This document shows positions 4,804 through 55,107 of a stretch of DNA of 64,000 bases, piece by piece. How positions within the stretch are numbered: the first letter of the stretch is position 1; every line of letters begins with the position of its first letter. This stretch comes from Escherichia coli (lineage in GTDB: Bacteria > Pseudomonadota > Gammaproteobacteria > Enterobacterales > Enterobacteriaceae). The notes beneath the pieces are model-generated. The model saw only the letters and a program-made list of their open reading frames with translations, ran no database searches and was not told the DNA's origin. Made by a program: the position numbers and the translations under genes. The stretch lies in NCBI RefSeq assembly GCF_044647545.1, contig NZ_CP172818.1. One strand, given 5' to 3'.

Positions 4804-6648
4804 TTATTTTTCCGGAAATAATAATGCGTCGCGCAATAAATGATCATTTCCACGACGACGCGTAAAGCCAATGCGGTCAAAATATTCCAGAATCTGAATT
4901 GCCAGCTTTCGGCCTACGCCTAAGCGATCGCGGAAATCCGCCGCGCAGGTTGAACCACACTCCTGATCGAGATCGCGGATCATATTGGCAAACTCGACAA
5001 TCCGATCGTTACGGTAATAACGATCTTTGACGATCGCGGTAATTATTCCTTGCTGCGCCGCCTGACGTAGCGTCAGACGCATTGCCTGCTCGTCGGTTCC
5101 CGTCTCTTTTGCCAGGTCTCGCACCCACCACGGTTCGTCACCAAACAGTGGCTCTGCTTTTTGCCAGATGGCCTGCTGCTCTTCGCTGAAGCCCGCTTTG
5201 TGATCCGGCAGATGCAGCCAGCCGTGATGACTGAGGATGTCACCGCTTTCACGCATCTTTTCAATCAGCAACAGTACCAGCGCTTCATCTTCCATTGGCA
5301 ACGCCATACGTCGCAGACGTTCGCGCCCAGGACCAGGTTCATCGCGATGTTTCTCATGATAAGTCGCTAATGTGTCGAGAATTTTCCGCTGCCAGCGGGC
5401 GGCAACTGGCGCATTCAACAAGCTGTAACCAGCCTGAATATAGCCAGGCTGTTGCAGCAGTTCGCGCATCCCTTCGCCGTTGAGCTGCCGTGCCCAGGCG
5501 AAATCCGCAAGGTTAACCGCGCCGCGTTCCAGATGAACAGATAACGCATCGGCATCGCTCTGCGCCCGTGCAAGAGACGCCAGCCATTGCAGATATTCCG
5601 GCTTACGCTTACCGCGACGCGGCGGGTTAAGCATCACCACACGCGCCCCCGCCAGCGTGTTGCGGGCCGAGATATCGCGCAGCACTATGCGATCGTTATC
5701 CGCCAGCCACAGCGGCGTGTCGAACACCAGCTCGGCAAGGTTATCTTCCAGCAGCGAAACGCGTCCCGTAACGTGGCTGGCGGCGTGGTGAATATGCAGT
5801 GGCTGCCACTGGGTCAGCGGTGTATGGGTTTGAAGCTCGACTATCACCCGCGTAAACGGCTCCGGCGGCACATCGGCAAGCAGCCAGTCGCCACGGTTAA
5901 TCTGCTCTTTTTCCGCATCACCCGCGATGTTAAGCGCGATACGCTGCCCGGCATGGGCAGTTTCTGTTGGCTGATTTTGCGCATGTAGCGCACGCACGCG
6001 CATCGGTTTATTTACACCAGTCAGCCAGATTGAATCGCCTACCTTCACTTCCCCGCTTAACGCCGTACCGGTGACGACCAGCCCGGCACCTTTTACGGTA
6101 AATGCGCGGTCGATCGCGAGGCGGAAACTATGTTGGCTGGCGTGTTCACGTTCTGGTAACTGAAGCAAATGCTCGCGCAGGGCATCAATTCCCCGACCTT
6201 CGGTTGCTGCGGTGATAAACAGTTTTGCCTCAGCAAAACCGTATTCCCGCAGCACCTCCTTTACCTGGCGTTCAACCTCATCAACACGCGCTTCGTCCAC
6301 GCGATCGGCTTTGGTCAGCGCCACTGTCAGCATCGGGTTACCGGTCAGCTGCAAAATCGCCAGATGCTCACGGGTCTGTGCCATCACGCCGTCATCGCAC
6401 GCCACCACCAACAGCGCGTGATCGATACCACCAACGCCCGCCAGCATGTTGGAAAGAAACTTTTCATGACCGGGAACGTCGATAAAACCCGGAACACGAC
6501 CATCCGGCTGCGGCCAGTAGGCATAGCCGAGATCGATGGTCATGCCGCGCTTTTTTTCTTCCGGCAGACGGTCGGCATTTACGCCAGTAATCGCCTGCAA
6601 TAAGGTTGTTTTGCCGTGGTCAACGTGTCCGGCAGTCGCAATAATCAT
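4804..6648 (-). CDS. selB: Selenocysteine-specific translation elongation factor SelB
   Basis: 614-aa ORF with N-terminal GTPase motifs ([28 protein letters not shown]); overlaps selA by 4 bp. Confidence 0.95.
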
Positions 6649-8036
6649 TTCAACAACATCTCCAAAAACCGTTGCTCATCTTCAAGGCAGCGTAAATCCA
6701 GCCACAATCGTCCGTCATAAATACGACCAATCACCGGCACTGGCAATTCACGCCAGCGGGCGGCTAATGACTCAAGGTGGCTACCGCGTCCATCATGGGG
6801 TGTAAACGTTAATGCCGCGCTCGGCAGGCGATCAACCGGCAGCGAACCACTGCCAATCTGCGAAAGACATGGCATAACCTGTACCGCAAACTCCGCGCCG
6901 TAATGTGCGGCAAGGGGAGCCTGTAAACGTTGTGCCTGGATTTGAATGACCTCTGCGCTGCGGGTAAGCAGGCGCAGGGTCGGTAATTTTTTACTCAGAG
7001 CTTCAGGGTGTAAATAAAGACGCAACGTGGCTTCCAGCGCCGCAAGGGTCATTTTATCCGCGCGTAATGCACGCTTCAGCGGGTGGCTTTGCAGTCGGGC
7101 GATCATCTCTTTTTTACCAACAATAATTCCTGCCTGCGGCCCGCCTAACAACTTGTCGCCGGAGAAGCTCACCAGACTGACGCCCGCCGCAATCAACTCC
7201 TGCGGCATTGGCTCTTTCGGCAAACCGTACTGGCTAAGATCGACCAGCGAGCCACTGCCTAAATCAGTCACTACGGGGACATCCAGCTCTTTGCCGAGCG
7301 CCACCAGTTCCGCTTCATCTATCGCTTTGGTGAATCCCTGAATGCTGTAGTTACTGGTATGTACTTTCATCAACAGCGCGGTATTTTCATTCACCGCCTG
7401 GCGATAATCATTAGCGTGCGTGCGGTTGGTGGTCCCCACTTCGTGTAGGGTGCAGCCTGCCTGACGCATAACATCGGGAATACGAAACGCGCCGCCAATC
7501 TCCACCAGTTCGCCGCGAGAAACCACCACCTCTTTCCCGCTGGCAGTGGCCGCCAACATCAATAACACCGCCGCCGCATTGTTATTAACGATACAGGCAT
7601 CTTCCGCCCCCGTAATACGGCACAGCAGCTGCGCCAGCGCCCGATCGCGATGTCCGCGTCCGGCGTCGTCCAGATCGTACTCGAGGGTCACTGGCGAACG
7701 CATAGCCTTCGTAACGGCTTCCACCGCGGCTTCCGCCTGTAAAGCTCGCCCAAGGTTGGTATGCAGCACGGTTCCCGTCAGGTTGATTACCGGACGCAGC
7801 GCGCTTTGCGCCTCTTTCGTCAACCGGGCATCGACTTCTTGCGCCCAGTTTTCACACCACGCGGGAAGCGTCTGGCTGTCTCGAATCACTTCTCGCGCTT
7901 CGTCAAGCATCTGACGCAGCAATTCCACCACGCGGGTGTGACCATAAGTATCACGCAAAGAAAGGAAGGAGCTATCGCGCAATAAGCGATCAATAGCCGG
8001 AAGTTGACTATAGAGGGAACGCGTTTCGGTTGTCAT
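6645..8036 (-). CDS. selA: L-seryl-tRNA(Sec) selenium transferase
   Basis: 463-aa ORF ([19 protein letters not shown]...), PLP-dependent fold; selAB operon arrangement. Confidence 0.95.
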
Positions 8037-8133
8037 AGGAAACCTGGCTGATCAAGGCCCTCTCACACGGAGAAGGGCGTTTAACATAACCACGGATTGT
8101 AACGTGAGATGGGTCAGGAGGACATATCGCGCA

Positions 8134-8742
8134 TCAAGCCTTTGGCGGTTCGGTGCGAGCAAAACTTTCGCGGCTAAACAGGTTTTCGACCAGTTTGACT
8201 AAGTGTGGGCGGTCGACACACCAGCCTGGCGCAACGCGGCGGAAATTGAGATATCCGACGGCACAGGCAATGGCGATAGTCGCCAGATTGACCGTATCGG
8301 TTTTGAGCGTGCCATCGACCAGATATCCTTCCAGCACATCCAGACTGCGGTTGATTTTCTCCCGCTGGCGTAACAATTCATCTTCAGACTGCTGCGCCGC
8401 CGGACGCGCCTGTTCACGCACCGATACCAGCCCGGCATCCATAATGCCATCCGCCAGTGCCTCAATTTTGCGCACTCGCAACGACTCCAGCGGATCGCGC
8501 GGCAACATCGCCGGAGCGACATTCATTAATTCAATATATTCAGCGATGATCGCCGAATCAAACCAACATTCACCCTCTTCGGTCACCAGCACCGGCACTT
8601 TCCCTAACGGGTTAAATTGCGCCACGCCGTTGTCCGCGTTATAGGGCAGTTCATTAATAAATTCGAAAGTTATGCCCTTTTCTAACAACAGAATAGAAAG
8701 TTTGCGTACAAACGGGCTGGTGTAGCTACCGACGAGTTTCAT
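8134..8742 (-). CDS. yibF: Glutathione S-transferase-like protein
   Basis: 202-aa ORF ([24 protein letters not shown]...) with GST N-terminal thioredoxin-like fold signature; K-12 gene order. Confidence 0.85.
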
Positions 8743-8970
8743 GCCGAGTCCTTTGTGCGAGGAAAAATATCAGTATGGCCTGGTGATGGGAAAAAGGGCA
8801 GAAAATGTTGATGGTTTGTTACTTCCCAATAAATCACATATTTATCATGGTGATATAAATATTTTCCTAATTGTTCTTATCTGACAGATATCTCACTTAA
8901 GGCTTTCTTATAAATCTGTAGGGTTTCGCCTGTCAGCAGACAAATAACCCGATAAAACAAGGATGAGCAG

Positions 8971-11900
8971 ATGAGCGGAAAACCGGCGGCGCGTCAGGGC
9001 GACATGACGCAGTATGGCGGTAGCATTGTCCAGGGTTCAGCCGGGGTACGTATTGGTGCCCCCACCGGCGTGGCCTGTTCGGTGTGCCCCGGCGGAGTAA
9101 CGTCCGGCCATCCGGTCAATCCGCTGCTCGGTGCAAAGGTCCTTCCCGGCGAGACAGACATCGCCCTGCCCGGCCCGCTGCCGTTCATTCTCTCCCGCAC
9201 CTACAGCAGTTACCGGACAAAAACGCCCGCGCCGGTGGGGAGCCTCGGCCCCGGCTGGAAAATGCCTGCGGATATCCGCTTACAGCTGCGCGATAACACA
9301 CTGATACTCAGTGATAACGGCGGCAGAAGCCTGTATTTTGAGCACCTGTTTCCCGGTGAGGACGGTTACAGCCGCAGCGAGTCACTCTGGCTGGTGCGCG
9401 GCGGCGTGGCGAAACTGGATGAAGGTCACCGGCTGGCCGCACTCTGGCAGGCGCTGCCGGAAGAGCTTCGCCTGAGTCCGCATCGTTATCTGGCGACGAA
9501 CAGTCCACAGGGGCCGTGGTGGGTACTCGGCTGGTGTGAGCGGGTGCCGGAGGCGGATGAGGTGCTGCCTGCGCCGCTGCCGCCGTACCGGGTACTGACC
9601 GGGCTGGTGGACCGCTTCGGGCGCACACAGACGTTCCACCGTGAGGCTGGCGGCGAATTCAGCGGCGAAATCACCGGCGTGACGGATGGCGCAGGCCGTC
9701 ACTTCCGGCTGGTACTGACCACGCAGGCGCTGCGGGCAGAAGAGGCCCGGCAGAAGGCCATTTCCGGCGGGACGGAACCGTCCGCTTTTCCTGATACCCT
9801 GCCGGACTACACGGAATATGGCCGGGACAACGGTATCCGTCTGTCTGCCGTGTGGCTGACACACGACCCTGAATACCCGGAGAATTTACCTGCCGCGCCG
9901 CTGGTGCGCTATGGCTGGACGCCACGCGGCGAACTGGCGGTGGTGTATGACCGCAGCAATACACAGGTGCGCAGCTTTACTTACGATGATAAATACCGGG
10001 GCCGGATGGTGGCGCACCGTCACACGGGCCGGCCGGAAATCCGTTACCGTTACGACAGTGACGGGCGGGTGACAGAACAGCTAAACCCGGCAGGCTTAAG
10101 CTACACGTATCAGTATGAGAAAGACCGCATCACCATCACCGACAGCCTGGACCGCCGTGAAGTCCTGCATACCGCAGGCGAAGGCGGCCTGAAGCGGGTG
10201 GTGAAAAAGGAACACGCGGACGGCAGCGTCACGCAGAGTCAGTTTGACGCGGTGGGCAGGCTTAAGACACAGACGGATGCCGCAGGCCGGACAACAGAAT
10301 ACAGCCCGGATGTGGTGACGGGCCTCATCACGCGCATCACCACGCCGGATGGCAGGGCATCGGCGTTTTACTATAACCACCACAGCCAGTTAACGTCAGC
10401 CACCGGGCCTGACGGGCTGGAAATACGCCGGGAATATGATGAATCCGGCCGTCTGATTCAGGAAACCGCCCCTGACGGCGATATCACCCGCTACCGTTAT
10501 GATAATCCACACAGTGACTTCCCCTGCGCAACGGAAGATGCCACCGGCAGCCGGAAAACCATGACGTGGAGCCGTTACGGTCAGTTGCTGAGCTTCACCG
10601 ACTGTTCCGGCTACCAGACCCGTTATGACCATGACCGCTTCGGGCAGATGACGGCGGTGCACCGCGAGGAAGGCCTGAGCCAGTGCCGCGCATACGACAG
10701 CCGTGGACAGTTAATTGCCGTGAAAGACACGCAGGGCCATGAAACGCGGTATGAATACAACATCGCCGGTGACCTGACCGCCGTCATTGCCCCGGACGGC
10801 AGCAGAAACGGGACACAGTACGATGCGTGGGGAAAGGCCATCCGTACCACGCAGGGCGGGCTGACCCGCAGTATGGAATACGATGCTGCAGGACGGGTCA
10901 TCCGCCTGACAAACGAAAACGGCAGCCACACCACCTTCCGTTACGATGTACTCGACCGGCTGATACAGGAAACCGGCTTTGACGGCCGCACACAGCGTTA
11001 CCACCACGACCTGACCGGCAAACTTATCCGCAGCGAGGATGAGGGGCTGGTCACCCACTGGCACTATGACGAAGCAGACCGCATCACGCAGCGAACGGTG
11101 AATGGTGAAACCGCAGAACAGTGGCGGTACGACGAACGCGGCTGGCTGACACAAATCAGCCATCTCAGCGAAGGGCACCGGGTGACGGTGCATTACGGGT
11201 ATGATGAGAAAGGCCGCCTGACCGGTGAGCGCCAGACGGTGCATCATCCGCAGACGGAAGCACTGCTCTGGCAGCATGAGACCAGACATGCGTACAACGC
11301 GCAGGGGCTGGCGAACCGCTGTATACCGGACAACCTGCCCGCCGTGGAATGGCTGACTTATGGCAGTGGTTACCTGGCAGGGATGAAACTCGGCGACACA
11401 CCGCTGGTGGAGTACACCCGCGACCGCCTGCACCGGGAAACGCTGCGCAGCTTCGGCCGTTATGAACTCACCACCGCTTATACCCCTGCCGGGCAGTTAC
11501 AGAGCCAGCACCTGAACAGCCTGCAGTATGACCGCGATTACACCTGGAACGACAACGGCGAACTCATTCGCATCAGCAGCCCGCGCCAGACCCGGAGTTA
11601 CAGCTACAGCGACTCCGGCAGGCTGACCGGCGTTCACACCACCGCAGCGAACCTGGATATCCGCATCCCGTATGCCACGGACCCGGCAGGTAACCGCCTG
11701 CCCGACCCGGAGCTGCACCCGGACAGCACCCTCAGCATGTGGCCGGATAACCGTATCGCCCGTGACGCGCACTATCTTTACCGGTATGACCGTCACGGCA
11801 GGCTGACGGAGAAAACCGACCTCATCCCGGAAGGGGTTATCCGCACGGATGATGAGCGGACTCACCGGTACCATTACGACAGCCGGCACCGGCTGGTGCA

Positions 11901-12750
11901 CTACACGCGGACACAATATGCAGAGCCGCTGGTCGAAAGTCGCTATCTTTACGACCCGCTGGGCCGCAGGGTGGCAAAACGGGTGTGGCGGCGTGAACGG
12001 GACCTGACGGGCTGGATGTCGCTGTCACGGAAACCGGAAGTGACCTGGTACGGCTGGGACGGCGACCGCCTGACCACGATACAGAACGACAGAACCCGCA
12101 TCCAGACGGTTTATCAGCCGGGGAGCTTCACACCACTCATCAGGGTCGAAACCGCCACCGGTGAGCAGGCGAAAACGCAGCGCCGCAGCCTGGCGGATGC
12201 GCTTCAGCAGTCCGGCGGCGAAGACGGTGGCAGTGTGGTGTTCCCGCCGGTGCTGGTGCAGATGCTCGACCGGCTGGAAAGTGAAATCCTTACTGACCGG
12301 GTGAGTGAGGAAAGCCGCCGCTGGCTGGCATCGTGCGGCCTGACGGTGGCGCAGATGCAAAACCAGATGGACCCGGTGTACACGCCGGCGCGAAAAATCC
12401 ACCTGTACCACTGCGACCATCGCGGCCTGCCGCTGGCGCTTGTCAGCACGGAAGGGGCAACAGAATGGTGCGCAGAATACGATGAGTGGGGCAACCTGCT
12501 GAATGAAGAGAACCCGCACCAGCTGCAACAGCTTATCCGCCTGCCGGGTCAGCAGTATGATGAGGAGTCCGGCCTGTATTACAACCGCCACCGCTATTAT
12601 GACCCGCTGCAGGGGCGGTATATCACTCAGGATCCGATTGGGCTGAAGGGGGGATGGAATTTTTATCAGTATCCGTTGAATCCGATATCAGACATCGAGC
12701 CCCCTGGGTTTATCTATGTGGGAGGATGCAAAATCGGGGGCATGTACTAA
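8971..12750 (+). CDS. rhsA: Rhs-family core protein (RhsA-type) with N-terminal PAAR-like region and YD repeats; very short atypical C-terminal tip
   Basis: 1259-aa ORF starting [26 protein letters not shown]; many YD/RHS repeats (RYRYDxxGR); conserved core end ...[29 protein letters not shown], followed by only [21 protein letters not shown] before the stop. GC-rich, unlike the AT-rich DNA downstream. Confidence 0.9.
12241..12686 (+). repeat. 3' end of rhs core; copy A of a dispersed direct repeat (copies at 14626-15069 and 17213-17298)
   Basis: About 450 bp nearly identical to 14626-15069; the last 80 bp or so also recur at 17213-17298. Boundaries are approximate. Confidence 0.8.
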
Positions 12751-13754
12751 TGGTCTTTGCGGCATATCAGCTGTGATGAGAGGTGCATAAGTTTTTCATA
12801 GACCGCATATGACGCCTTAATAACAATAAAATTAAAATATATTTTCAATAAAATCAATAGCCAAATAAAATAAATAAATAAATTTTCCCTGCACCTAGAA
12901 CGTGGAGAAAGTTAGTACATACTATGGATGCAATAGCATTGACATAATGGTGGGACGAATATTTTCACTTCGACTAATGTGGTAGATATCAGATTTGGAC
13001 GAAATATTTTAAGCAAAGATGAAAATAATTAAAATAAACAACGAATAAATACCACCCCATTAATAAACAATAGATAACCACGGGAAGGAAATAACAAACG
13101 GAAAAGGATCCGATGCCAGAGTTATCGGTAATATTAAAAAAAAAAATATAAATAAAATAAATAAATTTTATTTAGCACTCCCATTTTTTTTACACAACAT
13201 GGCCATAATAATAATTTTAAAATAATAATGACGGGAAAGAGAGAAAGAAGGTAAACTGTAAAAGGATTACAAAAATTTGGTCTACAAATACAGGTTATAG
13301 TAAAAAAATATTTTTTAGAATTTATTGTATCTTTTTTTTTTTACAACAACACAGGTCGCAGTGTAATTACAGAGATATTAAAATAATGCTCAAATTTATG
13401 AAGCAGTGAGGCAGAAGAATATACATATAAACGCTTCATTAAAACAAGTGGGTAATTTGGTTAAAAATAAACTAACATTGAATTACAATATATGTTAAAA
13501 TCAGGCAACCAAAAAGAAAAAATATAAAATATGATTAACAACAAGTCTTGTTGAAGGCACCATTCACTCAGACCAAATTGCTGGTGGGGTTTTTATTAGA
13601 AAATAGGCAAAAATGATGGGGTAATTCTGAATTTTGGCCACGGAAAATAAGTATGTAAGGATAATCAAACATCGTGTGCGCTGATGGCAGAGTAGGTGGA
13701 GGACTCCAGACAGTCAAACGATAAAAAAAGATAGCCTTTATGGAGGCTCCTGCA

Positions 13755-14597
13755 ATGTCAAATACATACCAGAAAAGAAAGGCAAGTAAAGAGTATGGTT
13801 TATATAATCAATGTAAGAAACTAAATGATGATGAATTATTTCGCTTACTTGATGATCACAATTCCTTGAAAAGGATTTCATCTGCCAGAGTATTACAGTT
13901 AAGAGGTGGGCAAGACGCTGTTAGATTGGTAATTGAGTTCTGCTCTGATAAAAATTATATCCGTAGAGATATCGGAGCATTTATACTCGGGCAAATAAAA
14001 ATTTGCAAAAAATGCGAAGATAATGTGTTTAATATTTTGAACAATATGGCATTGAATGATAAGAGCGCTTGCGTTCGAGCTACGGCAATCGAGTCAACGG
14101 CTCAGCGATGCAAGAAAAACCCAATTTATTCACCTAAAATAGTAGAACAATCTCAAATTACTGCTTTTGATAAATCGACTAATGTCAGACGTGCTACAGC
14201 ATTTGCTATTTCTGTTATCAATGATAAAGCAACAATTCCACTATTGATTAATCTGTTAAAAGATCCAAATGGAGATGTCAGAAACTGGGCCGCATTTGCA
14301 ATAAATATCAATAAATATGATAATAGTGATATTAGGGATTGTTTTGTGGAGATGCTTCAGGATAAAAATGAGGAAGTCCGTATTGAAGCAATAATCGGAC
14401 TTTCCTACAGAAAAGATAAAAGGGTTTTATCTGTTTTATGCGATGAGTTAAAAAAAAATACTGTTTATGATGATATCATTGAAGCTGCGGGTGAATTAGG
14501 TGATAAAACGCTACTTCCTGTTTTAGATACTATGTTGTACAAGTTTGATGACAATGAAATTATAACTTCCGCTATTGATAAGCTGAAGCGTTCATAG
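13755..14597 (+). CDS. yibA: HEAT/armadillo-repeat protein YibA
   Basis: 280-aa product from the ATG at 13755 (MSNTYQKRKASKEYGLYNQ...); repeated helical DxxVRxxAxxAL-like units; sits inside the Rhs accessory region as in K-12. Confidence 0.85.
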   Translation: MSNTYQKRKASKEYGLYNQCKKLNDDELFRLLDDHNSLKRISSARVLQLRGGQDAVRLVIEFCSDKNYIRRDIGAFILGQIKICKKCEDNVFNILNNMALNDKSACVRATAIESTAQRCKKNPIYSPKIVEQSQITAFDKSTNVRRATAFAISVINDKATIPLLINLLKDPNGDVRNWAAFAININKYDNSDIRDCFVEMLQDKNEEVRIEAIIGLSYRKDKRVLSVLCDELKKNTVYDDIIEAAGELGDKTLLPVLDTMLYKFDDNEIITSAIDKLKRS

Positions 14598-14638
14598 CGT
14601 GAGTTGCCTATGCACAGTGGGGTATTCCCGCCGGCACG

Positions 14639-15148
14639 GTGCAGATGCTCGATCGGCTGGAAAGTGAAATCCTGGCTGACCGGGTGAGTGAGGAAAGCCG
14701 CCGCTGGCTGGCATCGTGCGGCCTGACGGTGGAGCAGATGCAAAACCAGATGGACCCGGTGTTCACGCCGGCGCGAAAAATCCACCTGTACCACTGCGAC
14801 CATCGCGGCCTGCCGCTGGCCCTTATCAGCAAGGAAGGGACAACAGAATGGTACGCAGAATATGATGAATGGGGCAACCTGCTGAATGAAGAGAACCCGC
14901 ACCAGCTGCAACAGCTCATCCGCCTGCCGGGTCAGCAGTATGATGAGGAGTCCGGCCTGTATTACAACCGCCACCGCTATTATGACCCGCTGCAGGGGCG
15001 GTATATCACTCAGGATCCGATTGGGCTGAAGGGGGGATGGAATTTTTATCAGTATCCGTTGAATCCGATGACAACGGTTGATCCTCTTGGATTAAAATTT
15101 AAGGTAGAAGGTGACGGTCAGCTTTTGATTCTGCAATTGAATATTTGA
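14639..15148 (+). pseudogene. yibJ: Orphan Rhs core-end fragment (yibJ/rhsJ-like) with a truncated C-terminal tip
   Basis: GTG-initiated 169-aa ORF duplicating the last 150 residues or so of the rhsA core ([12 protein letters not shown]...[27 protein letters not shown]), then only 17 residues before the stop; no upstream core. Confidence 0.65.
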
Positions 15149-15209
15149 AACAAGATGATGAGATGAAAAAAAATAATTACGGCCCTTGAAAAGGATAAAC
15201 ACACTATAG

Positions 15210-15536
15210 TGGTTAGTTGTAATAATAATTATGATACACTCATTTAATCGATGGACAATGAGAATACACTGGGATCCTAAAGCTGCTCTATTGTGTACGG
15301 GTGTACAGAAAGATGGTAATTTTGATTTTAAAAATGACAATCTTGAGCCTGTAGTAGCATTAGGTCATGAAATAGCCCATGCAGAGGCTTATTAAATGAA
15401 GAATTCAGTGTTTATATGAAGCGAGTAAATACACCTGATCCTATATATGATAACGCAGAGGAAAGAAGAGTAATAACAGGTATTGAGAAACATGTTGCAC
15501 AAACATTAAAACAATGTGTTAGAAAAAACCACGGGG
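15210..15536 (+). pseudogene. Decayed remnant of a putative HExxH-motif toxin domain (two short frames separated by a frameshift)
   Basis: Frame 1 (about 15210-15396) translates ...WDPKAALLCTGVQKDGNFDFKNDNLEPVVALGHEIAHAEAY*; a second frame (about 15411-15536) gives MKRVNTPDPIYDNAEERRVITGIEKHVAQTLKQCVRKNHGE*. Read by eye; no ORF of 60 aa or more. Confidence 0.3.
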
Positions 15537-17284
15537 AATAATTTACCATGTACCTTAACAATATACGGTTGTAGTTGCTATATTTGTAAAGAGATTACCC
15601 CATCGAACCGGAATAAATGAAAATGACTATATTTTATGAGTTACTATCATCATTGAACAATCAGCATATAAGATAACCTCACCAAAAGCAGTTTAAACCA
15701 TGGTAAGTTGTAGAAGTGGGACATCTCGGCACCCCATTTTTTGTATGAAAAGTTACGAGAAATATATATTTTAATTTTTTTTTATATTATATATTAACCA
15801 AAATTAAAAAAACAACAATTTAAATAAAAAATTATTTATTACTTATATATTAACAATATCATAATAAATTCATTAAAACCGCTAGTTATAAATAATTATA
15901 AAAAAATCACAAATTGTTAAAATTTAATATTAATTATTTTAAAACAACCTAATGATATAAGATGGGGATTTATAGATCTAAGTGAAAGAGCTTGTTACTA
16001 TATTTTTATTTTTCTTTTGTTCCGGTGATTTGAATGGTATTAGTATGTTGAAAAAAATAGAAAAAAAGTGGAGGGGTCTAAGCCATAATATATCATTAGT
16101 GAAGAAAAGATGATGCATAAACTGAAATATAATATGGCAAAAAAGAATTCAAAGGCATCATTCTACTCCTGACTATTTTTCACATTTCCTCGAAGTTAAA
16201 TTGAAAATACGAGACGCAATATTAAAATTATACAAATGAATTCCAGAAAATCACGTAACGCTGCTTTTTTTACTAAACAATTCCATTTTATGTTTAAAAA
16301 TTAGATATCTATTAGAAGCTGTTTTTTATTGTTATAGATCATCAAAAATACTCCTTATAATAAAAGAACAAAATTGATTAAAAAATTGAAAATATTTATT
16401 ATCCATTACAACAATAAAAAATAAATTATATATTCTATTTGACTATTGGTTATTTCGTAGATGGTTGGGAAATATAACGATTATTGGAAAGATCAGCATC
16501 TCGGGATTTTTACAAGCAATATTGATTTTGAAAAGGGTATTCCTTTTCACGATACCATTCCAGATTTACCTGTATCAGATCTTGCATAATTTCACGAGAG
16601 CTTTATTAATTGGATGTGACATTCTCAGATGAAATAAAGCGTCATATTGTATGGAAACGATTTATACAAATCCCCAAATATTATTATGTAAAAATTTATC
16701 AAATAGAAATCAGACAGATGCGAAATCCAATGAGATCAAACAGCTACAAATTTAAAAATATTAAAAAAAATCATCACAAACGTATTAAAAATAAAAAATA
16801 CAAAAACATATTATTTATCTTAAAAGAAATCACCTAAATAAACCTAGAAAAATCATAAAATTAAATAACAAAATACATACCAATTATGAAAAATCACCAA
16901 AAAAATCTCTCACATTCATTCTATGAATTATTATTTCACTAATAAATCTAAAATCATTGCATCTCTCTCAATAATACAAACAAAAAAAAAAAAACGTCAA
17001 TATAATCATTCTTATTTAACCAAAGCTTCCACACAATCGAAACAGCACGGAAATAAGCCGCACTGGCGTCGACGCGGTAATGAATGAAGACGACTGCAAA
17101 ATAAGAAGAATCCGTAAACAGCAGAATTAGTTCTCAGGATACCGCACACGCTAGTAATATACGAATGATAAGTATTCAAGGCAGTGCTAAGACGTAATAT
17201 CGGTAACTTTTCCCGCCGCAGGGGCGGTATATCACTCAGGATCCGATTGGGCTGAAGGGGGGATGGAATTTTTATCAGTATCCG

Positions 17285-17758
17285 TTGAATCCGATAACTG
17301 ATATTGACCCGTTGGGATTAGCGACCTGTTTATACAGCATAACTTTAGGTATGCTTTCATGCGTTTCAGATACGTCAAGTGATGATAATTCTTATGGTGT
17401 GCTTACTATTTCAGTCGCCTCTGGTAATAATGGTAATAATATGCAATGTAAAAATAATCCTGGTTGTACACACTTACAAAATAGAGGCCCAATACCTCAA
17501 GGGGTATGGAGCTGGAATGTTAATGGTCCTGGAGCAACTAATAGAAAACCTAATGGTATACGTTTAGTACCGTCAGCAAATACAGAAACGTATAATCGTG
17601 ATGGATTTTTAACACATAGTTGTTTAAACGCTTTTGGTCCATCTTTAGGACCTCGATTCTGTTCCGAGGGGTGTATAACTGGTTCATCTAATGACATGCA
17701 AAAATTAAATGAGCTAATATTTTCAGAGCCAGATAGCACATTAACAGTGACGGACTAG
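17285..17758 (+). CDS. Orphan Rhs C-terminal toxin module; putative L,D-transpeptidase-like (YkuD/Tlde1-like) toxin domain
   Basis: Rhs core-end homology resumes at about 17213 ([36 protein letters not shown]); in-frame stop at 17204-17206 and no ATG before the TTG at 17285. The tip contains RGPIPQGVW and H-x15-SEGCI ([24 protein letters not shown]), resembling the LD-transpeptidase catalytic His/Cys signature. Confidence 0.6.
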
Positions 17759-17762
17759 AAAT

Positions 17763-18284
17763 ATGGCAAGGTTATTAACAATTGTGCTTTTTTTCTCTAT
17801 TTCTGCGAATGCAGTTACTGTAAACCAATTTCAGAGAGAGTTGGATTTGGCAGACAAGGCAATATTATGGGCACTAATATCAGCCAGTACCCAAGAGGGA
17901 CGAAAAGCGTGTTCACTTAGCTATTTTTCATGTAAAGCCGCAGAGGCTGAACTCGGACTGGCATATATGGCTGCTAATGATAACAAGGCATTTCTCACAT
18001 CCTTATCTAGAATAATGATGTACAAAATAGATGCTGGACTTTCCGAATCCTATACATGCTATTTATTAAGCAAGGGAAAGATCATAAGACCATATCTGAA
18101 GAATCTAAATCCACACCAACTTGTCGCTGATTGCATTGAAACTGTAAATAAAATAAAAGATAAAAATAAAAAAATCATTGATATAGATTCAGTTAATATT
18201 TGCAATGATAATAAAAATATAAATTGGAGAGTTAATAGTACTATTGTAGCCATTGATGATTCTATAAAATGCATCGATGAATAA
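17763..18284 (+). CDS. Putative secreted (periplasmic) immunity protein paired with the upstream orphan Rhs toxin
   Basis: 173-aa ORF starting 5 bp after the toxin stop; N-terminal signal-peptide-like segment MARLLTIVLFFSISANA followed by a Cys-containing soluble domain; AT-rich like the toxin tip. Confidence 0.5.
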   Translation: MARLLTIVLFFSISANAVTVNQFQRELDLADKAILWALISASTQEGRKACSLSYFSCKAAEAELGLAYMAANDNKAFLTSLSRIMMYKIDAGLSESYTCYLLSKGKIIRPYLKNLNPHQLVADCIETVNKIKDKNKKIIDIDSVNICNDNKNINWRVNSTIVAIDDSIKCIDE

Positions 18285-18741
18285 TAACTTAATTATATTT
18301 AAAAATATATTAATAACTCACTCTCCAGGAGTTTTTTTAACTTAGTGTTATAATGAATACGATAATTAAAAGTGAAGAGAAAAATAGTTGTATACATATA
18401 TTCCATGAACCTACATTGTGATCTATAAATTAAATATTTTTAAATGTGACTATCATCCTTCAGATAATAAAGCCATCATCGCAATAGATGGAAAAGCACT
18501 CCTGCTCTTTTTTGATTAGAGCCGTGGCAGAGGAACAACTCATATCATCATTGCGATCTCGACAATGTATAGTCTGATCCTTCGGCAGATCAAGACGGAT
18601 AAAAAATCCAATGAGTTCACACTCATCCCGAACTTCTTAACATAATGGATATTAACGAAAAATCATCACAGCCGATGAAATAATATGCAAAAATAATTAG
18701 TCCTTGCAGGGAGCAAAGTTCCATAATCTCCCCCGCCCCCC

Positions 18742-19878
18742 TCAATGATCCAAATAAAGATAATGCATCCAACTGGTCATTCTTAGCAGCACCTTCCGCA
18801 TCACCGAAACATGGCTGAAATGGTCGGAGTAAACTGCTACCTGGGCGTAAATGCCGTCGGGTAAGGCATCGATATCATCGTTAGGGTCCAGTTCAATGGT
18901 TCCCAGCACACCGTCCGTGCCGGGTACGACGGTTAATGATTGCAGTACCCCTTGCGCCTGATACGAACCGCCTGGCACGACAGGTAAAATACTAGTCAGT
19001 TTGCCGTGGAACACCTGCCCAGGTAGCGCGTTAAACACCACTTCCGCATCATCGCCGGGTTTCAGACGTAACAGCGAGTTCTGCCGAAATTGGGCGACAA
19101 TTTGCCGTTTTTGCTCGGGGATGAAAACCATCACCGGACGCAACGGCAAGGCAGCTGCGTATGTACCTGGGCGGATCAGTACCTGAGTAACGTAGCCATT
19201 GCTTGGTGCGCGAATGACAGTCTGCTCAAGGTTATATTTTGCTTCAGTAAGTTGCGCTCTTAAGCTCACAATCTGCGACTGCTCGCCGTTAACCATACTG
19301 TCGAGCTGGCTCTGGATCTGCGCCTGCTCCGCCACCGAGCCTTTCACCAGCGCGTCCTGCGCGAGGAAGTTTTGCCGCGCATCGTCGATGTCACGTTCCG
19401 AGAACGGATTCACTGCCGCCTGGCTGCCTTTCAGGTAACGTTGATAATTTTTAAACAGGCGGTCGCGCTCCGCTGAAACCTGGGTGGTGTTGGCCTGCGC
19501 TTCAGTGAGCTGCGCGCGCAGCGTCTTTATATTATGCGTCGCCGTCATCAGGTCAGCCTGAAGTCTGTCAACTCGCGCCTGGTAACGAACCGGGTCGAGC
19601 TTAAAAAGCACCTCGCCCTTCTGAATAAGCTGATTATTTTTGTCGGTGACTTCAGTAACAATTCCCGTCACCTGTGGCGTGATGGGGATCGCTATCACTG
19701 CCTTTTGCGCGGTAAAAGTGTAAGGGTGGTTGTAGTTCATCAACAAAATCAAACCACTCACCAGAAACACGCCTCCCAGCGCCGCCGTCGCCAGCGTCCA
19801 CTGATTTACCGGAATGCGGAAGATTTTAAAGACCGCCCACGCCAGCGCCACGTAAGTTAAAACAATCAATAGATCCAT
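18742..19878 (-). CDS. yibH: HlyD-family membrane fusion protein
   Basis: 378-aa ORF with N-terminal TM helix, long coiled-coil (RLQADL...LRAQLTEAQ) and C-terminal beta-barrel typical of HlyD/EmrA periplasmic adaptors. Confidence 0.85.
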
Positions 19879-19880
19879 AT

Positions 19881-20243
19881 TTAGATCTCCGGGAACGTGG
19901 AATAGTCAGTCTTTTTCTCGGCGGCGAGTTGATGCTCCAGCCGGGAAATTCGGTCAGAAAGTGCGGCGATTTCCGGGTCAGTCGCTTTCTCCTGCGACGC
20001 AACATGTGACTGCATACCCCAGCCACGCTCCGGTTGATAGAGCGTCGCCCAGATCCACAGGAACGGCCAGATAACATGCAGAGTAAACAGGCTCACCCAG
20101 CCCGCTGTATGAATAGCGTCGGCATGGGGGTGATTACGCTTTTTGGCAATCAGATAAGGGATGTCATGTATCGCGATGATTCCATAAAAAATCACCAGAA
20201 AGACGAAGATCAGCACTCCCAACGCGAAGTAGTTTAGAAACAT
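19881..20243 (-). CDS. yibI: DUF3302 inner-membrane protein
   Basis: 120-aa product from the ATG at 20243 ([45 protein letters not shown]...); the track ORF extends upstream to 20345. Confidence 0.85.
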
Positions 20244-20458
20244 ATCTGCCTCGGATTCACGTTTATCAGTGTTGTTTTTGGCTGGCAGCCAGATGGGAGT
20301 CGGGCTGATATTTTGACAATAATCCGGGTTGGCGATTCTCGCCATAACACCGAAGAATAATTTTTAGAGGTGATGAGTTGCTTAGTTACATAACGATTTT
20401 ATGACGAAGGCATAACATGCTGCAGATCACATCAGGTGAACGCCGTAAGAAAATATCT

Positions 20459-20474
20459 TGTGATTCAGATCACA
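20459..20474. promoter_or_regulatory. CRP binding site (TGTGA-N6-TCACA) in the mtlA promoter
   Basis: tgtgattcagatcaca, a perfect match to the CRP half-site consensus. Confidence 0.7.
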
Positions 20475-20502
20475 AAGATTCAACAAACTAACAAAACAAA
20501 AA

Positions 20503-20518
20503 TGTGACATTACTCACA
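20503..20518. promoter_or_regulatory. CRP binding site in the mtlA promoter
   Basis: tgtgacattactcaca, perfect TGTGA-N6-TCACA. Confidence 0.7.
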
Positions 20519-20575
20519 TTTAAATGCCATTTTTAGCGAAAATCGCCGCCTTGTTGCTTTTTTACACAAGAGTTT

Positions 20576-20591
20576 TGTGATGCACATCACG
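20576..20591. promoter_or_regulatory. CRP-like site in the mtlA promoter
   Basis: tgtgatgcacatcacg, one mismatch in the right half-site. Confidence 0.6.
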
Positions 20592-20629
20592 TCAATTACC
20601 TCTCTACCCCCTATATTTATGTGATTCAT

Positions 20630-20645
20630 ATCACACAAAAAGCCG
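20630..20645. promoter_or_regulatory. CRP binding site in the mtlA promoter
   Basis: tgtgattcatatcaca, perfect TGTGA-N6-TCACA about 135 bp upstream of the mtlA ATG. Confidence 0.7.
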
Positions 20646-20778
20646 TCGACTGGACAGTTAACCGATTCAGTGCCAGATTTCGCAGTATCTACAAGGTCCG
20701 GCTACCTCTGCCGCCACATTAACAAAAAACCTCGGGCTTCCAGCCTGCGCGACAGCAAACATAAGAAGGGGTGTTTTT

Positions 20779-22692
20779 ATGTCATCCGATATTAAGATCA
20801 AAGTGCAAAGCTTTGGTCGTTTCCTCAGCAACATGGTGATGCCAAATATCGGCGCGTTTATCGCGTGGGGTATCATCACCGCGTTATTTATTCCAACAGG
20901 GTGGTTACCGAACGAAACGCTGGCGAAGCTGGTCGGGCCGATGATCACTTATCTCCTGCCACTGCTGATCGGTTATACCGGTGGTAAGCTGGTAGGCGGC
21001 GAACGTGGCGGCGTAGTCGGTGCCATTACCACCATGGGCGTTATCGTCGGCGCAGACATGCCGATGTTCCTCGGTTCTATGATTGCAGGTCCGCTGGGCG
21101 GCTGGTGCATTAAGCACTTCGACCGCTGGGTAGACGGTAAGATCAAATCCGGTTTTGAAATGCTGGTGAATAACTTCTCCGCAGGCATCATCGGGATGAT
21201 CCTCGCTATTCTGGCATTTCTCGGCATTGGCCCGGTTGTTGAAGCCCTGTCTAAAATGCTGGCGGCGGGCGTTAACTTCATGGTTGTCCATGACATGCTG
21301 CCGCTGGCGTCTATCTTTGTTGAACCGGCGAAAATCCTGTTCCTCAACAACGCCATTAACCACGGTATCTTCTCGCCGCTGGGTATTCAGCAGTCCCATG
21401 AACTGGGTAAATCCATCTTCTTCCTGATTGAAGCTAACCCAGGTCCAGGTATGGGCGTGCTGCTGGCGTACATGTTCTTTGGTCGTGGTAGCGCTAAACA
21501 GTCTGCGGGCGGTGCGGCAATCATCCACTTCCTGGGGGGTATCCACGAAATCTACTTCCCGTATGTGCTGATGAATCCGCGTCTGATTCTGGCCGTTATC
21601 CTCGGCGGTATGACTGGCGTATTCACGCTGACTATCCTGGGCGGTGGGCTGGTTTCTCCGGCATCTCCGGGTTCTATCCTTGCTGTACTGGCGATGACGC
21701 CAAAAGGTGCTTACTTCGCTAACATCGCGGGTGTGTGTGCGGCGATGGCAGTCTCCTTCGTTGTCTCTGCTATTTTGCTGAAAACCAGCAAAGTGAAAGA
21801 AGAAGATGATATTGAAGCTGCTGCGCGTCGCGTTCAGGAAATGAAAGCTGAGTCTAAAGGTGCATCTCCGCTGTCTGCGGGCGATGTGACTAACGACCTG
21901 AGCCACGTACGTAAAATCATCGTTGCCTGTGACGCCGGTATGGGTTCCAGTGCGATGGGCGCAGGTGTGCTGCGTAAGAAAATTCAGGATGCAGGTCTGT
22001 CGCAGATTTCTGTTACTAACAGCGCGATCAACAACCTGCCGCCAGATGTGGACCTGGTCATCACTCACCGTGACCTGACCGAACGCGCTATGCGCCAGGT
22101 TCCGCAGGCACAGCATATTTCGCTGACCAACTTCCTCGACAGCGGCCTGTACACCAGCCTGACCGAACGTCTGGTTGCTGCCCAGCGCCATACTGAAAAC
22201 GAAGTAAAAGTGAAAGACAGTCTGAAAGACAGCTTTGACGATTCCAGTGCTAACCTGTTCAAGCTAGGCGCGGAGAACATCTTCCTCGGTCGCAAAGCGG
22301 CCACCAAAGAAGAAGCGATTCGTTTTGCTGGCGAGCAGCTGGTGAAAGGCGGTTACGTTGAGCCGGAATACGTTCAGGCGATGCTGGATCGTGAAAAACT
22401 GACCCCGACTTATCTGGGTGAGTCTATCGCGGTGCCACACGGTACGGTTGAAGCAAAAGATCGCGTACTGAAAACGGGCGTGGTGTTCTGCCAGTACCCG
22501 GAAGGCGTGCGCTTCGGTGAAGAAGAAGATGACATTGCCCGTCTGGTGATTGGTATTGCTGCCCGTAACAACGAGCACATTCAGGTTATCACCAGCCTGA
22601 CCAATGCACTGGATGATGAGACTGTCATCGAGCGTCTGGCACACACCACCAGCGTGGATGAAGTGCTGGAATTGCTGGCAGGTCGTAAGTAA
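20779..22692 (+). CDS. mtlA: PTS mannitol-specific EIICBA component
   Basis: 637-aa ORF ([31 protein letters not shown]...) with membrane EIIC, EIIB Cys region and C-terminal EIIA domain. Confidence 0.95.
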
Positions 22693-52137: not shown

Positions 52138-52935
52138 TTATAATCCTTTGCGTTGTGTTCGCTCTTTAATACGCTCGGCCTTAACGCTTGCCATGTTCAA
52201 TAAATTCTGTTCAAGAGACAATATTTTGCGTAAAGGCATCCCAAAATACACTTTCATAAACCGCCAGATATCCCGCTGAGTCAGGCCGATATTCATCGAA
52301 GAAAAATAAAGCCCAATAAGATCTTTATCGCGCCAACGACGTGGAACGCGCGTGCGAAGCTGCGCCCGGTGCAGGTCAATTACTGAAATTTTTAACTCCT
52401 CTTCCTTACCGGAAAAAGGCAAGTGCAGCAGGAAATGACAGATATAACAGTCACGGTGGTTAATGCCCGCAGCATGCATATCGCGCACCATCGTCGCGAC
52501 ACGCTTAATAAGCATACGCTTTACGCGAACATCTGGTGGGTTGGTCGCCCAGTCAGCACAGTAATCTTCCAGACTGATGGTTGGTGTCAGATCTTCGGTA
52601 ATAATAAACGAGGTTCTGGTCAGCGGATTAATGCCTTTTTCGCCGAATGCCACCCCATACATAGTATCAACGCCGACATCCCGCAGTCGATGAATCGCAT
52701 TCCATTCGCGGTCTGCGCCTAATACTGGCATCCGCAATGAGAGTAAATTTTTGATTATCTCTTTCAGGGTCGTGCCGCGATGCCATTTGAGAAAATAGCT
52801 TTTGCCCGCCATTTCAAAGCGCAGAGTGCGGCGAGTTTCCAGTTCACGAAATACCTCACCCTGCAAGGTTTTAACTTCCTCAAAAGGATCTTTACCGCGC
52901 CATAACGTGGCAAACGGCTCTTTAAGTTCAACCAT
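52138..52935 (-). CDS. waaP: LPS core heptose I kinase WaaP
   Basis: 265-aa product ([40 protein letters not shown]...). Confidence 0.9.
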
Positions 52936-54052
52936 CCAGACCACCCGTTATGATGTCCGCTGCTTTCTCTGGCAGACTGTATAAATCTTGTGTATCAGCA
53001 TAATGTCGCGCATTTTCTGCCCAGGCCTGGCGCAATGAAGATTGCGTTAACGCTTTGCGTAAAATCTCATTCAATGTTTCCTGGCGGAATGGCTCAGCAA
53101 TAGCCTCGCCGCAATTGGCGTCAACAATATAATGCGCATAGCCACAAACGGCTGTTGTTAGTACCGGTAATCCTGCAGTAATCGCTTCCAGCAGCACAAT
53201 TCCCGCCGCTTCCTGGTAGGCAGGATGAAGTAATAAATCCGCCGCCGCCATTAATTCCGAGACATCGTTGCGCCCCGAGAAGAAGTGAACATTACTGCGC
53301 ACGCCGCGTTTTTCTGCCAGCGCCTCAAATTTTCGCGGTTTATCCTGCCCAACAACATATAGTAATGTGTTGTGGCGCAGCGAATCCGGTAACGAAGCAA
53401 GTGCTTCAATGGAACGATCGACACCTTTACGCGTGAAGTCTGAACCGACCTGCAACAATAAATATTGTTGTTCGGTTATTCCATTCTTCTTACGGAAGAT
53501 TTCACGGCTATTCGCTGGTTGCTGGCTATATTTACGATCAGGATAAATCCCCGGTGGCAGAATATGAAAACGCTCCGCTTCAGTCTGATAATGTTTCTGG
53601 AAATCGGCGATTTGCTTATCTGTCAGCATCAGCAGCTGTGTCGGCTTGCCCTGTTCGAAGGTTGCCCGCTCAAAGGCGGCATAATGGCGATAACGTGACG
53701 TCAGGCGATAGAAAAAGCCTTTCTCCTGCGCTACTTTCTCGGCATAACAAACATCAGCGGCATAATAAACGTCCAGCCCCGGCATTTTATTAAATCCAAC
53801 GACTCTATCGACGGGGTATTCACGTAAATGTTTTTGCACCCAGGCAAAATATTCCGCATTGCGCCCGTGATTGGTATGCGATTTAACCGGCACTTTGATC
53901 AGTTCAAATACATCAGGGCATTCGCCTTCCCACGACTGGGTATAAACCCGAACATGATGACCTCGGGCGGCAACTGTCTGAGCAATACGCATAAAATCGC
54001 GCTGCAAACCGCCAAAGGGAAAATATTTATATAAACAAAAAGCAACGATCAT
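52928..54052 (-). CDS. waaG: LPS glucosyltransferase I WaaG
   Basis: 374-aa GT4 ORF ([43 protein letters not shown]...). Confidence 0.9.
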
Positions 54053-55107
54053 AACGACGTACCTGTCGTGGAGGAGGGAAGTAATTTATCGACAGCTGCA
54101 ATGACATCTGCCGCCGGAATAACCGAAAGATACATCTCATTTCGGTCACGCTGATCGCGCGTTGGCATTTCCCGGTAATCTCCCGCCCAGAATTGAATCA
54201 TGTTATTTGACCAGGGACGCCAGAAAATATGGTCTGTCGCACCAAACAGCGATATCAGTGGCGTATTAACTGCAGCGGCAATATGCGCCGGTGCGGAATC
54301 AACGCCAATAAACAGCTGCGCATGATCGATTAACGCACCAAGTTCCGGGAAGGTCACCTTTCCGGCCAGTGCCGTTACTGGTGGCGTCTGGCATCCCTGC
54401 GCAATTTCATTGACGCAGGCCAGATCGTCTTTATCTGGGCCGGACGTCAGAACGACTTCATAACCACGAGCATGTAAGGCATCAATCACAGCGGAAAACT
54501 TGGCGTTGTCCCAGCATTTGAAGATTTGCCGCGCCGTAGGTTGGATAACCACATAATTTTGTCCAACACCAGCGTGATCAAGTTCGCGACGCATACGTTT
54601 CCAGCTTGCAGGCGGGTAACTCATGGTTGTCTGCTTCACCAACGATTCAAGTCCCAATGGCGTCAGCACGGATAAGTTACTTTCCACCACATTTCCACCC
54701 TGCAACGGCACCAAATGAGTGAAACTATTACGCCAAAAAGCAGACTGCCGATGATGATAATCCTGGGAAATTTTCACACGGGCATTTAATAAGCGAACCA
54801 GTATAGCAACCATCCATTGATCGGTAAGATTAACGATAAGGTCATACTTATTGGCACGTAATATCTTGATGAGATGGAAAAAGTTGGCAATTTTTTCTGA
54901 GGCTTTTGCTTTTTTATTTTTTATGCCGTAGAGCGCGTTAATCTCTGGATTTTCAGACAGGATCGGGATGGTGTCCTGATAAAGCAGCACATCGATTTTT
55001 GCGTCAGGGTAATTTTTTTTCAGCGAACTAATGACGGGAGTAGTTAATAACATATCCCCATGAAAACGCATCTTAATGAGCAAAATTCTTCGAAATGGCT
55101 TATCCAC
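54049..55107 (-). CDS. waaQ: LPS heptosyltransferase III WaaQ
   Basis: GT9-family ORF; the track start is the GTG at 55107 (352 aa). A TTG at 55083 would give the 344-aa length I recall for K-12 WaaQ, so the start is uncertain. Confidence 0.85.
   Translation of the reverse strand: MDKPFRRILLIKMRFHGDMLLTTPVISSLKKNYPDAKIDVLLYQDTIPILSENPEINALYGIKNKKAKASEKIANFFHLIKILRANKYDLIVNLTDQWMVAILVRLLNARVKISQDYHHRQSAFWRNSFTHLVPLQGGNVVESNLSVLTPLGLESLVKQTTMSYPPASWKRMRRELDHAGVGQNYVVIQPTARQIFKCWDNAKFSAVIDALHARGYEVVLTSGPDKDDLACVNEIAQGCQTPPVTALAGKVTFPELGALIDHAQLFIGVDSAPAHIAAAVNTPLISLFGATDHIFWRPWSNNMIQFWAGDYREMPTRDQRDRNEMYLSVIPAADVIAAVDKLLPSSTTGTSL

Follow-up and report, generated by a model that had tools for sequence, protein, structure and literature searches.

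An intact yibA gene of the Imm-HEAT class, probably orphaned by an RhsB-type cassette, next to an Rhs tip region that appears corrupted in Escherichia coli

The yibA gene and the rhs array around it

The window, by which we mean the entire 64,000-nucleotide stretch of E. coli DNA that was analyzed, contains selA, yibF, a large rhs gene that begins at position 8971, yibA, and then yibH on the far side. This gene order corresponds to the rhsA site of the K-12 chromosome. All the features described here are on the plus strand. The main rhs gene (8971 to 12750) is a 1259-aa ORF with a DUF6531 N terminus and a YD-repeat core, and it ends at an early stop. It is followed by yibA (13755 to 14597) and by a first orphan rhs core fragment (14615 to 15069), which represents the last ~455 nt of the core, ends in DPLGL, and has an ORF at 14639 to 15148. 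The tip attached to this fragment (15070 to 15600) is broken; it is weakly Peptidase_M91-like and carries an HEIAH motif. In the reference genomes, too, this tip is in pieces; the window adds four single-base indels. A second orphan tip (17285 to 17758) consists of a short core remnant with DPLGL followed by a Tlde1-domain toxin, and it is paired with an Imm57 immunity gene (17763 to 18284). Core fragments are thus found 3′ of the main rhs gene at 14615 to 15069 and at ~17203 to 17290, and the locus is a standard Rhs C-terminal-displacement array, with nothing new in kind. The orphan Tlde1/Imm57 module (17285 to 18284) is intact and 99.9% identical to that of the relatives described below; at this site, K-12 retains only yibV, a gene of the Imm57 family.

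A group of E. coli genomes, FDAARGOS_497 and strain ST648 among them, has a selB-yibF flank 100% identical to the one in the window. In these relatives and in the closely matching strain M25631H (L001 in our set of compared loci), the corresponding rhs gene encodes 1411 aa, is annotated rhsB, and has a DUF4329 tip followed by yhhH, which encodes an Imm-NTF2-2 protein. The relatives' array then continues with a spacer of ~105 nt, yibA, the orphan core fragment with the broken M91-like tip, a transposase fragment, an ISAs1 element, a core remnant fused to the Tlde1 tip, the Imm57 gene, and yibH. The first-pass annotation had named the gene upstream of yibA rhsA, a name that applies by chromosomal position alone: the tip that belongs there is of the RhsB type and not the cognate Ntox34. 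As an “rhsA” gene at the rhsA chromosomal site often has an RhsB-type tip, naming by position is misleading.

Other parts of the window differ from the same relatives. Relative to FDAARGOS_497, it has no Fic-family gene in the aldB-yiaY interval (~3410) and no DUF3251/YadA-like adhesin insert after yibL (~25388), and its first ~1.7 kb are unmatched in that genome. The two absences and the unmatched segment indicate that the window strain, a relative of the ST648-like genomes, is a mosaic. Farther along, waaP, waaG, and waaQ (52138 to 55107) are ~22% diverged from the K-12-type alleles, with the adjacent waaL...waaS genes 99.4% K-12-like. The waaP-G-Q ORFs are intact and their alignments have few gaps, arguing for natural allelic divergence; this looks like a recombinant waa locus.

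The HEAT-repeat gene that the first-pass annotation had placed at 13755 to 14597 proved to be correctly identified and delimited. Its 843-nt frame of 280 codons is intact and free of internal stops in the window sequence, and it differs from the K-12 allele at 2 nt, leaving 279 of the 280 residues identical to K-12 YibA (b3594), with A58V as the sole change. The nucleotide sequence is the same as that of M25631H yibA, and this allele is annotated as intact in the ST648-like genomes. The automatic ORF list starts the gene at an earlier ATG, at 13740. We place the start at 13755 because a GGAGG Shine-Dalgarno sequence is located 8 nt before that ATG and because this position agrees with the K-12 annotation. 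The chromosomal site is also that of K-12 (yibF...yibH). The protein matches the Pfam families HEAT_2 (5e-23) and HEAT (1.9e-17), its residues 1 to 280 match the structure deposited as “hypothetical protein yibA” (PDB 1OYZ; E = 1.9e-182), and a HEAT_PBS match at the level of a single repeat scores 25.7 bits. The gene contains an A9 tract at 14450 to 14458. As judged from sequence and fold, the ORF is thus a real, intact yibA whose product belongs to the YibA/Imm-HEAT family. The rhs core had likewise been described as following the yibA stop within about 40 bp, and this also held up: core homology resumes 17 nt past the stop (14615), and the first in-frame start codon of the fragment comes 41 nt past it (14639). 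A 2026 paper that presents “E. coli YibA” as a NADAR hydrolase was set aside, as the name is a typographical error for YbiA according to that paper's own tables.

YibA, Ntox34, and the orphan state

As relayed by Poole in 2011 (PMC3150448), Hill and colleagues reported that RhsA's C-terminal region keeps stationary-phase cells from recovering, and Vlazny and Hill (1995) reported that growth inhibition by this region is neutralized by yibA. In the comparative survey of Zhang et al. (2012; PMC3482391), the immunity partner given for the Ntox34 of RHS and T6SS proteins is Imm-HEAT, and a later review counts Ntox34 among the experimentally characterized nuclease toxin domains. The tip of K-12 RhsA is an Ntox34 domain (Pfam, E = 4e-44) that ends 20 nt upstream of yibA. 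A Salmonella enterica YibA homologue with 74% identity (L005) is found 22 nt 3′ of an orphan Rhs fragment that ends in Ntox34 (E = 1.9e-39). A dN/dS ratio of 0.19 for the E. coli gene against its Salmonella counterpart points to purifying selection acting on the yibA family. Two homologues with 43% identity (L008 and L009) also adjoin Rhs sequence; a Pfam search of the tips neighboring them returned no Ntox34 match.

YibA-like HEAT proteins are also encoded among housekeeping genes. Two of them, with 44 to 51% identity, were found near recC (L007, 2947 to 3837) and near a gene for a tail-specific protease (L010, 6001 to 6855), respectively, and their surroundings contain neither Rhs nor toxin genes. 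Fixation of orphan immunity genes in other taxa could explain them, as could a different function.

Direct adjacency to an Ntox34 tip, as seen for yibA in K-12 and for its Salmonella homologue, is not a feature of the yibA gene in the window. The missing neighbor marks this copy as an orphan and not as a nonmember of the YibA/Imm-HEAT family. We searched the 64-kb window by tblastn with the 130 residues that follow DPLGL in K-12 RhsA, which contain Ntox34. Residues 122 to 130 alone were matched, at 13705 to 13731, and no further Ntox34 sequence was detected in the window. The remnant (13705 to 13734) corresponds to the last nine codons (SRQSNDKKR) and the stop codon of K-12 rhsA. It is part of the ~105-nt yhhH-yibA spacer (13651 to 13754), which is identical in M25631H and nearly identical at the K-12 rhsB locus. 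On the 5′ side of yibA, the window and K-12 become homologous just 52 nt before the ATG. Together with the nine-codon remnant, this indicates that the Ntox34 tip was replaced, not merely broken. From these sequence comparisons, a cassette composed of a DUF4329 (RhsB-type) tip and yhhH appears to have taken the place of the Ntox34 tip, orphaning yibA. An orphan immunity gene had been proposed at the outset, with the absence of an intact cognate tip ascribed to rhsA. The category fits, with Ntox34 reduced to nine codons in the window, but the cause would be a cassette swap and not the loss of a tip by rhsA.

To determine how common this arrangement is, we made counts over 5,426 complete E. coli genomes, using a query coverage of at least 80%. 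Full-length yibA is present in 2,948 of them and is thus missing from ~46%. The K-12-type Ntox34 tip was found in 1,747 genomes (~32%) and the Ntox34-yibA junction in 1,753, and the 5′ junction of the yhhH-spacer-yibA type occurs in 2,971; the replacement of Ntox34 by the yhhH cassette is an arrangement that is both old and widespread. Subtraction of these counts, as opposed to a checked intersection, gives ~1,200 genomes (~22%) with a full-length yibA not preceded by Ntox34. The orphan arrangement is therefore common and not exceptional, with about one in five complete E. coli genomes having it.

The following sequence of events would account for the locus. In this lineage, the DUF4329 tip and yhhH would have been brought in by recombination where the rhs core ends, and this event would have deleted the Ntox34 tip save for its last nine codons, leaving behind an intact, orphan yibA. 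Read-through from rhs-yhhH probably accounts for transcription of the gene, and its own GGAGG probably for translation; a promoter and terminator scan of positions 13300 to 14800 yielded 5 promoter-like sites, compared with 5.4 expected by chance. By analogy with other immunity proteins of polymorphic toxins, YibA may act by direct binding. If expressed, it would block the Ntox34 tips injected by Ntox34-carrying strains, which make up about one-third of E. coli.

Whether such protection takes place bears on why the gene is still there. It is conceivable, if somewhat doubtful, that yibA is a neutral leftover of the cassette swap that has not decayed so far and protects against nothing. The diversity of yibA within E. 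coli is close to zero (at least 99% identity in 2,895 genomes), so that selection on the orphan copy is not readable from diversity, and retention of the gene may reflect the recency of the swap. Damaged copies exist as well, including K-12 yrhC, 354-nt fragments found among the genomes, and one copy interrupted by IS1. Furthermore, a yibA length of 842 nt was observed in about 4 of 37 evenly sampled full-length matches, and all three of the 842-nt alleles that we sampled, which come from unrelated genomes (L013, L014, and L015), are in an orphan context and have the A9 tract shortened to A8, causing a frameshift in the last ~47 codons. The A8 alleles could come from slippage at a hot spot or from a sequencing error in the homopolymer; taken with the IS1-disrupted copy, these frameshifts suggest relaxed selection. 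The chance-level promoter signal 5′ of yibA also fits a neutral leftover. Against this, neither the ORF nor its Shine-Dalgarno sequence is disrupted in the window or in the majority of the ~1,200 orphan-type genomes, the dN/dS of 0.19 relative to Salmonella indicates purifying selection on the family in the longer term, and the cognate toxin, present in ~32% of E. coli genomes, represents a common threat. We consider it somewhat more credible that orphan yibA is protective at least occasionally.

It is improbable that YibA is kept for a cellular function unrelated to Rhs, for instance as a “putative lyase” or a stress-related HEAT scaffold. This proposal draws on the K-12 annotation, “putative lyase containing HEAT-repeat”, on the HEAT_PBS match, and on the YibA-like proteins encoded amid housekeeping genes. 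However, what the HEAT_PBS match shows is a resemblance between single repeats, and E. coli offers no phycobiliprotein-type context for it. In E. coli and in Salmonella, yibA is located inside Rhs elements, and the two 43%-identical homologues adjoin Rhs as well. The neutralization of the RhsA C terminus by yibA relayed in PMC3150448 is a further argument against an unrelated role, as is the lack of a full-length yibA in ~46% of complete E. coli genomes.

Two garbled blocks and the apparent loss of the Rhs tip

The first-pass annotation had also described the main rhs gene as tipless. The reading frame does end early: one additional G (12699) within the DPLGL cleavage motif shifts it, and it stops at 12750, and no ORF longer than 49 aa was found between 12750 and 13740. 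Slightly upstream of the shift, a patch of eight substitutions (12660 to 12675) changes LYGYQ to FYQYP. The FYQYP version is that of the end of the orphan core copy (14986 to 15072), and the patch looks like the product of gene conversion between core repeats or of mis-assembly or a mis-join at the repeat.

We compared the window base by base with the M25631H locus. Beyond the stop, positions 12764 to 13600 (block 1) correspond to the DUF4329 (RhsB-type) tip and yhhH in a noisy form that has no ORFs, with ~350 to 365 differences from the reference that comprise 74 substitutions and 93 indel events. Forty-seven of the 101 bases deleted in this block are G, the insertions are A-rich and of low complexity, and one segment of the reference is doubled in noisy form. 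A second block (15720 to 17259) is a noisy version of the transposase fragment and of the ISAs1 (H-repeat) element; its ~600 differing bases comprise 74 substitutions and 243 indel events, 220 of which are deletions that remove a total of 490 bases (223 G and 109 C).

The sequence around the two blocks is nearly free of differences from the same reference. We found a single difference over the 6.4 kb from 6231 to 12659, none from 13601 to 15068, a segment that includes all of yibA, and a single one over the 4.1 kb from 17260 to 21379. The broken tip of the first orphan fragment (15069 to 15596) has two substitutions in addition to its four single-base indels, the latter between 15114 and 15532. 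No further garbled block was detected in the rest of the window, where ORFs are intact even in divergent stretches. The garbled version was not found in any complete E. coli genome, the best matches having 74.6% identity across the region, and the truncated 1259-aa Rhs product is absent from public assemblies and the gene index.

In natural bacterial pseudogenes, substitutions far outnumber indels, and one strand does not lose G at twice the rate of C. Given the ratio of indels to substitutions, the bias of the deletions toward G, and flanks that are 100% identical, both blocks most likely represent corrupted or unpolished sequence, such as a gap filled with raw long reads or a mis-join at the repeats. 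A divergence of 20 to 25% enclosed by practically identical flanks is more than natural decay can produce. Most likely, the rhs gene of this strain is intact and ends in a DUF4329 tip, with yhhH after it. The description of the gene as tipless is thus accurate for the reading frame as given, but a biological loss of the tip is probably not involved, as the relatives have an intact gene of 1411 aa and the region downstream of the frameshift is dominated by indel noise.

A real loss of the tip and yhhH, through natural pseudogenization or localized hypermutation of the cassette and of ISAs1, is about as improbable as a role of YibA outside Rhs biology. It would account for the lack of ORFs in both blocks as given, and Rhs elements are known to gather degraded orphan modules, the tip of the first orphan fragment being broken even in the reference genomes. 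Nevertheless, the 20 to 25% divergence is restricted to the two blocks, with a handful of differences over ~12 kb around them. Indel events outnumber substitutions by 1.3:1 in block 1 and 3.3:1 in block 2, the reverse of what natural pseudogenes show. Deletions are strand asymmetric, with G lost two to three times as often as C. Finally, a process of decay would also have to explain the noisy duplicate of one segment in block 1 and the absence of the garbled version from public genomes and gene calls. Least credible of all is that a deletion-rich, G-biased local mutation process destroyed DUF4329/yhhH and ISAs1 and spared the surroundings including yibA, in which case yibA would be the sole working immunity gene beside a disarmed Rhs.

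Corruption of the sequence being the preferred reading of both blocks, ORF calls in 12764 to 13600 and in 15720 to 17259 are unreliable, and the pseudogenization of rhs should not be read as biology given this noise. This warning is the main practical value of the analysis. We put the probability of the whole explanation, in which YibA is an Imm-HEAT protein that would neutralize Ntox34 and was orphaned by an RhsB-type cassette, with the “tipless” rhs gene resulting from corrupted sequence, at about 0.75.

Comparison with known Rhs systems

Earlier work has established the role of YibA against the RhsA Ntox34 tip, the Imm-HEAT class, and the fact that Rhs arrays can contain orphan immunity genes. 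The closest counterpart is the RhsA-CT (Ntox34)/YibA pair of K-12, which has the same protein (279 of 280 residues), the same HEAT fold (1OYZ), and the same yibF-yibH site. In both loci, the same orphan core fragment begins ~40 nt after the yibA stop. They differ on the 5′ side of yibA, where K-12 has the Ntox34 tip at a distance of 20 nt, whereas the window has nine codons of it and, in its place, the garbled DUF4329 tip and yhhH.

The order found in the window has its match at another K-12 locus, rhsB (rhsB-yhhH-yrhC, b4552), where a DUF4329 tip is followed by yhhH, by a spacer of ~105 nt that contains the Ntox34 remnant, and by the 5′ end of yibA. There, the pseudogene yrhC (L012, 5388 to 5633) is a 5′ fragment of yibA, truncated at ~350 nt by the H-repeat/ISAs1 gene yhhI. 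Unlike yrhC at rhsB, yibA in the window is full length and is located at the rhsA site.

Arrays of displaced modules 3′ of a full-length rhs gene are likewise characteristic of the orphan rhs-CT/rhsI modules described earlier (PMC3150448; Koskiniemi 2014, PMC3967940). Classical orphan modules are composed of a core fragment, a toxin tip, and an immunity gene, whereas the module in the window is reduced to the immunity gene and nine toxin codons. In this respect it resembles the orphan immunity genes of polymorphic toxins, in which the immunity gene is kept without a deliverable cognate toxin.

In S. enterica (L005, 4897 to 8271), the YibA homologue directly follows an Ntox34 tip within an Rhs element, and the same array contains a DUF4329/Imm-NTF2-2 cassette. 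The presence of both in each genus suggests that the Ntox34-HEAT and DUF4329/Imm-NTF2-2 modules travel together. Their order is opposite, however: Salmonella keeps Ntox34 as an orphan fragment and has the DUF4329 cassette downstream of the HEAT gene, whereas in the window this cassette is upstream of yibA.
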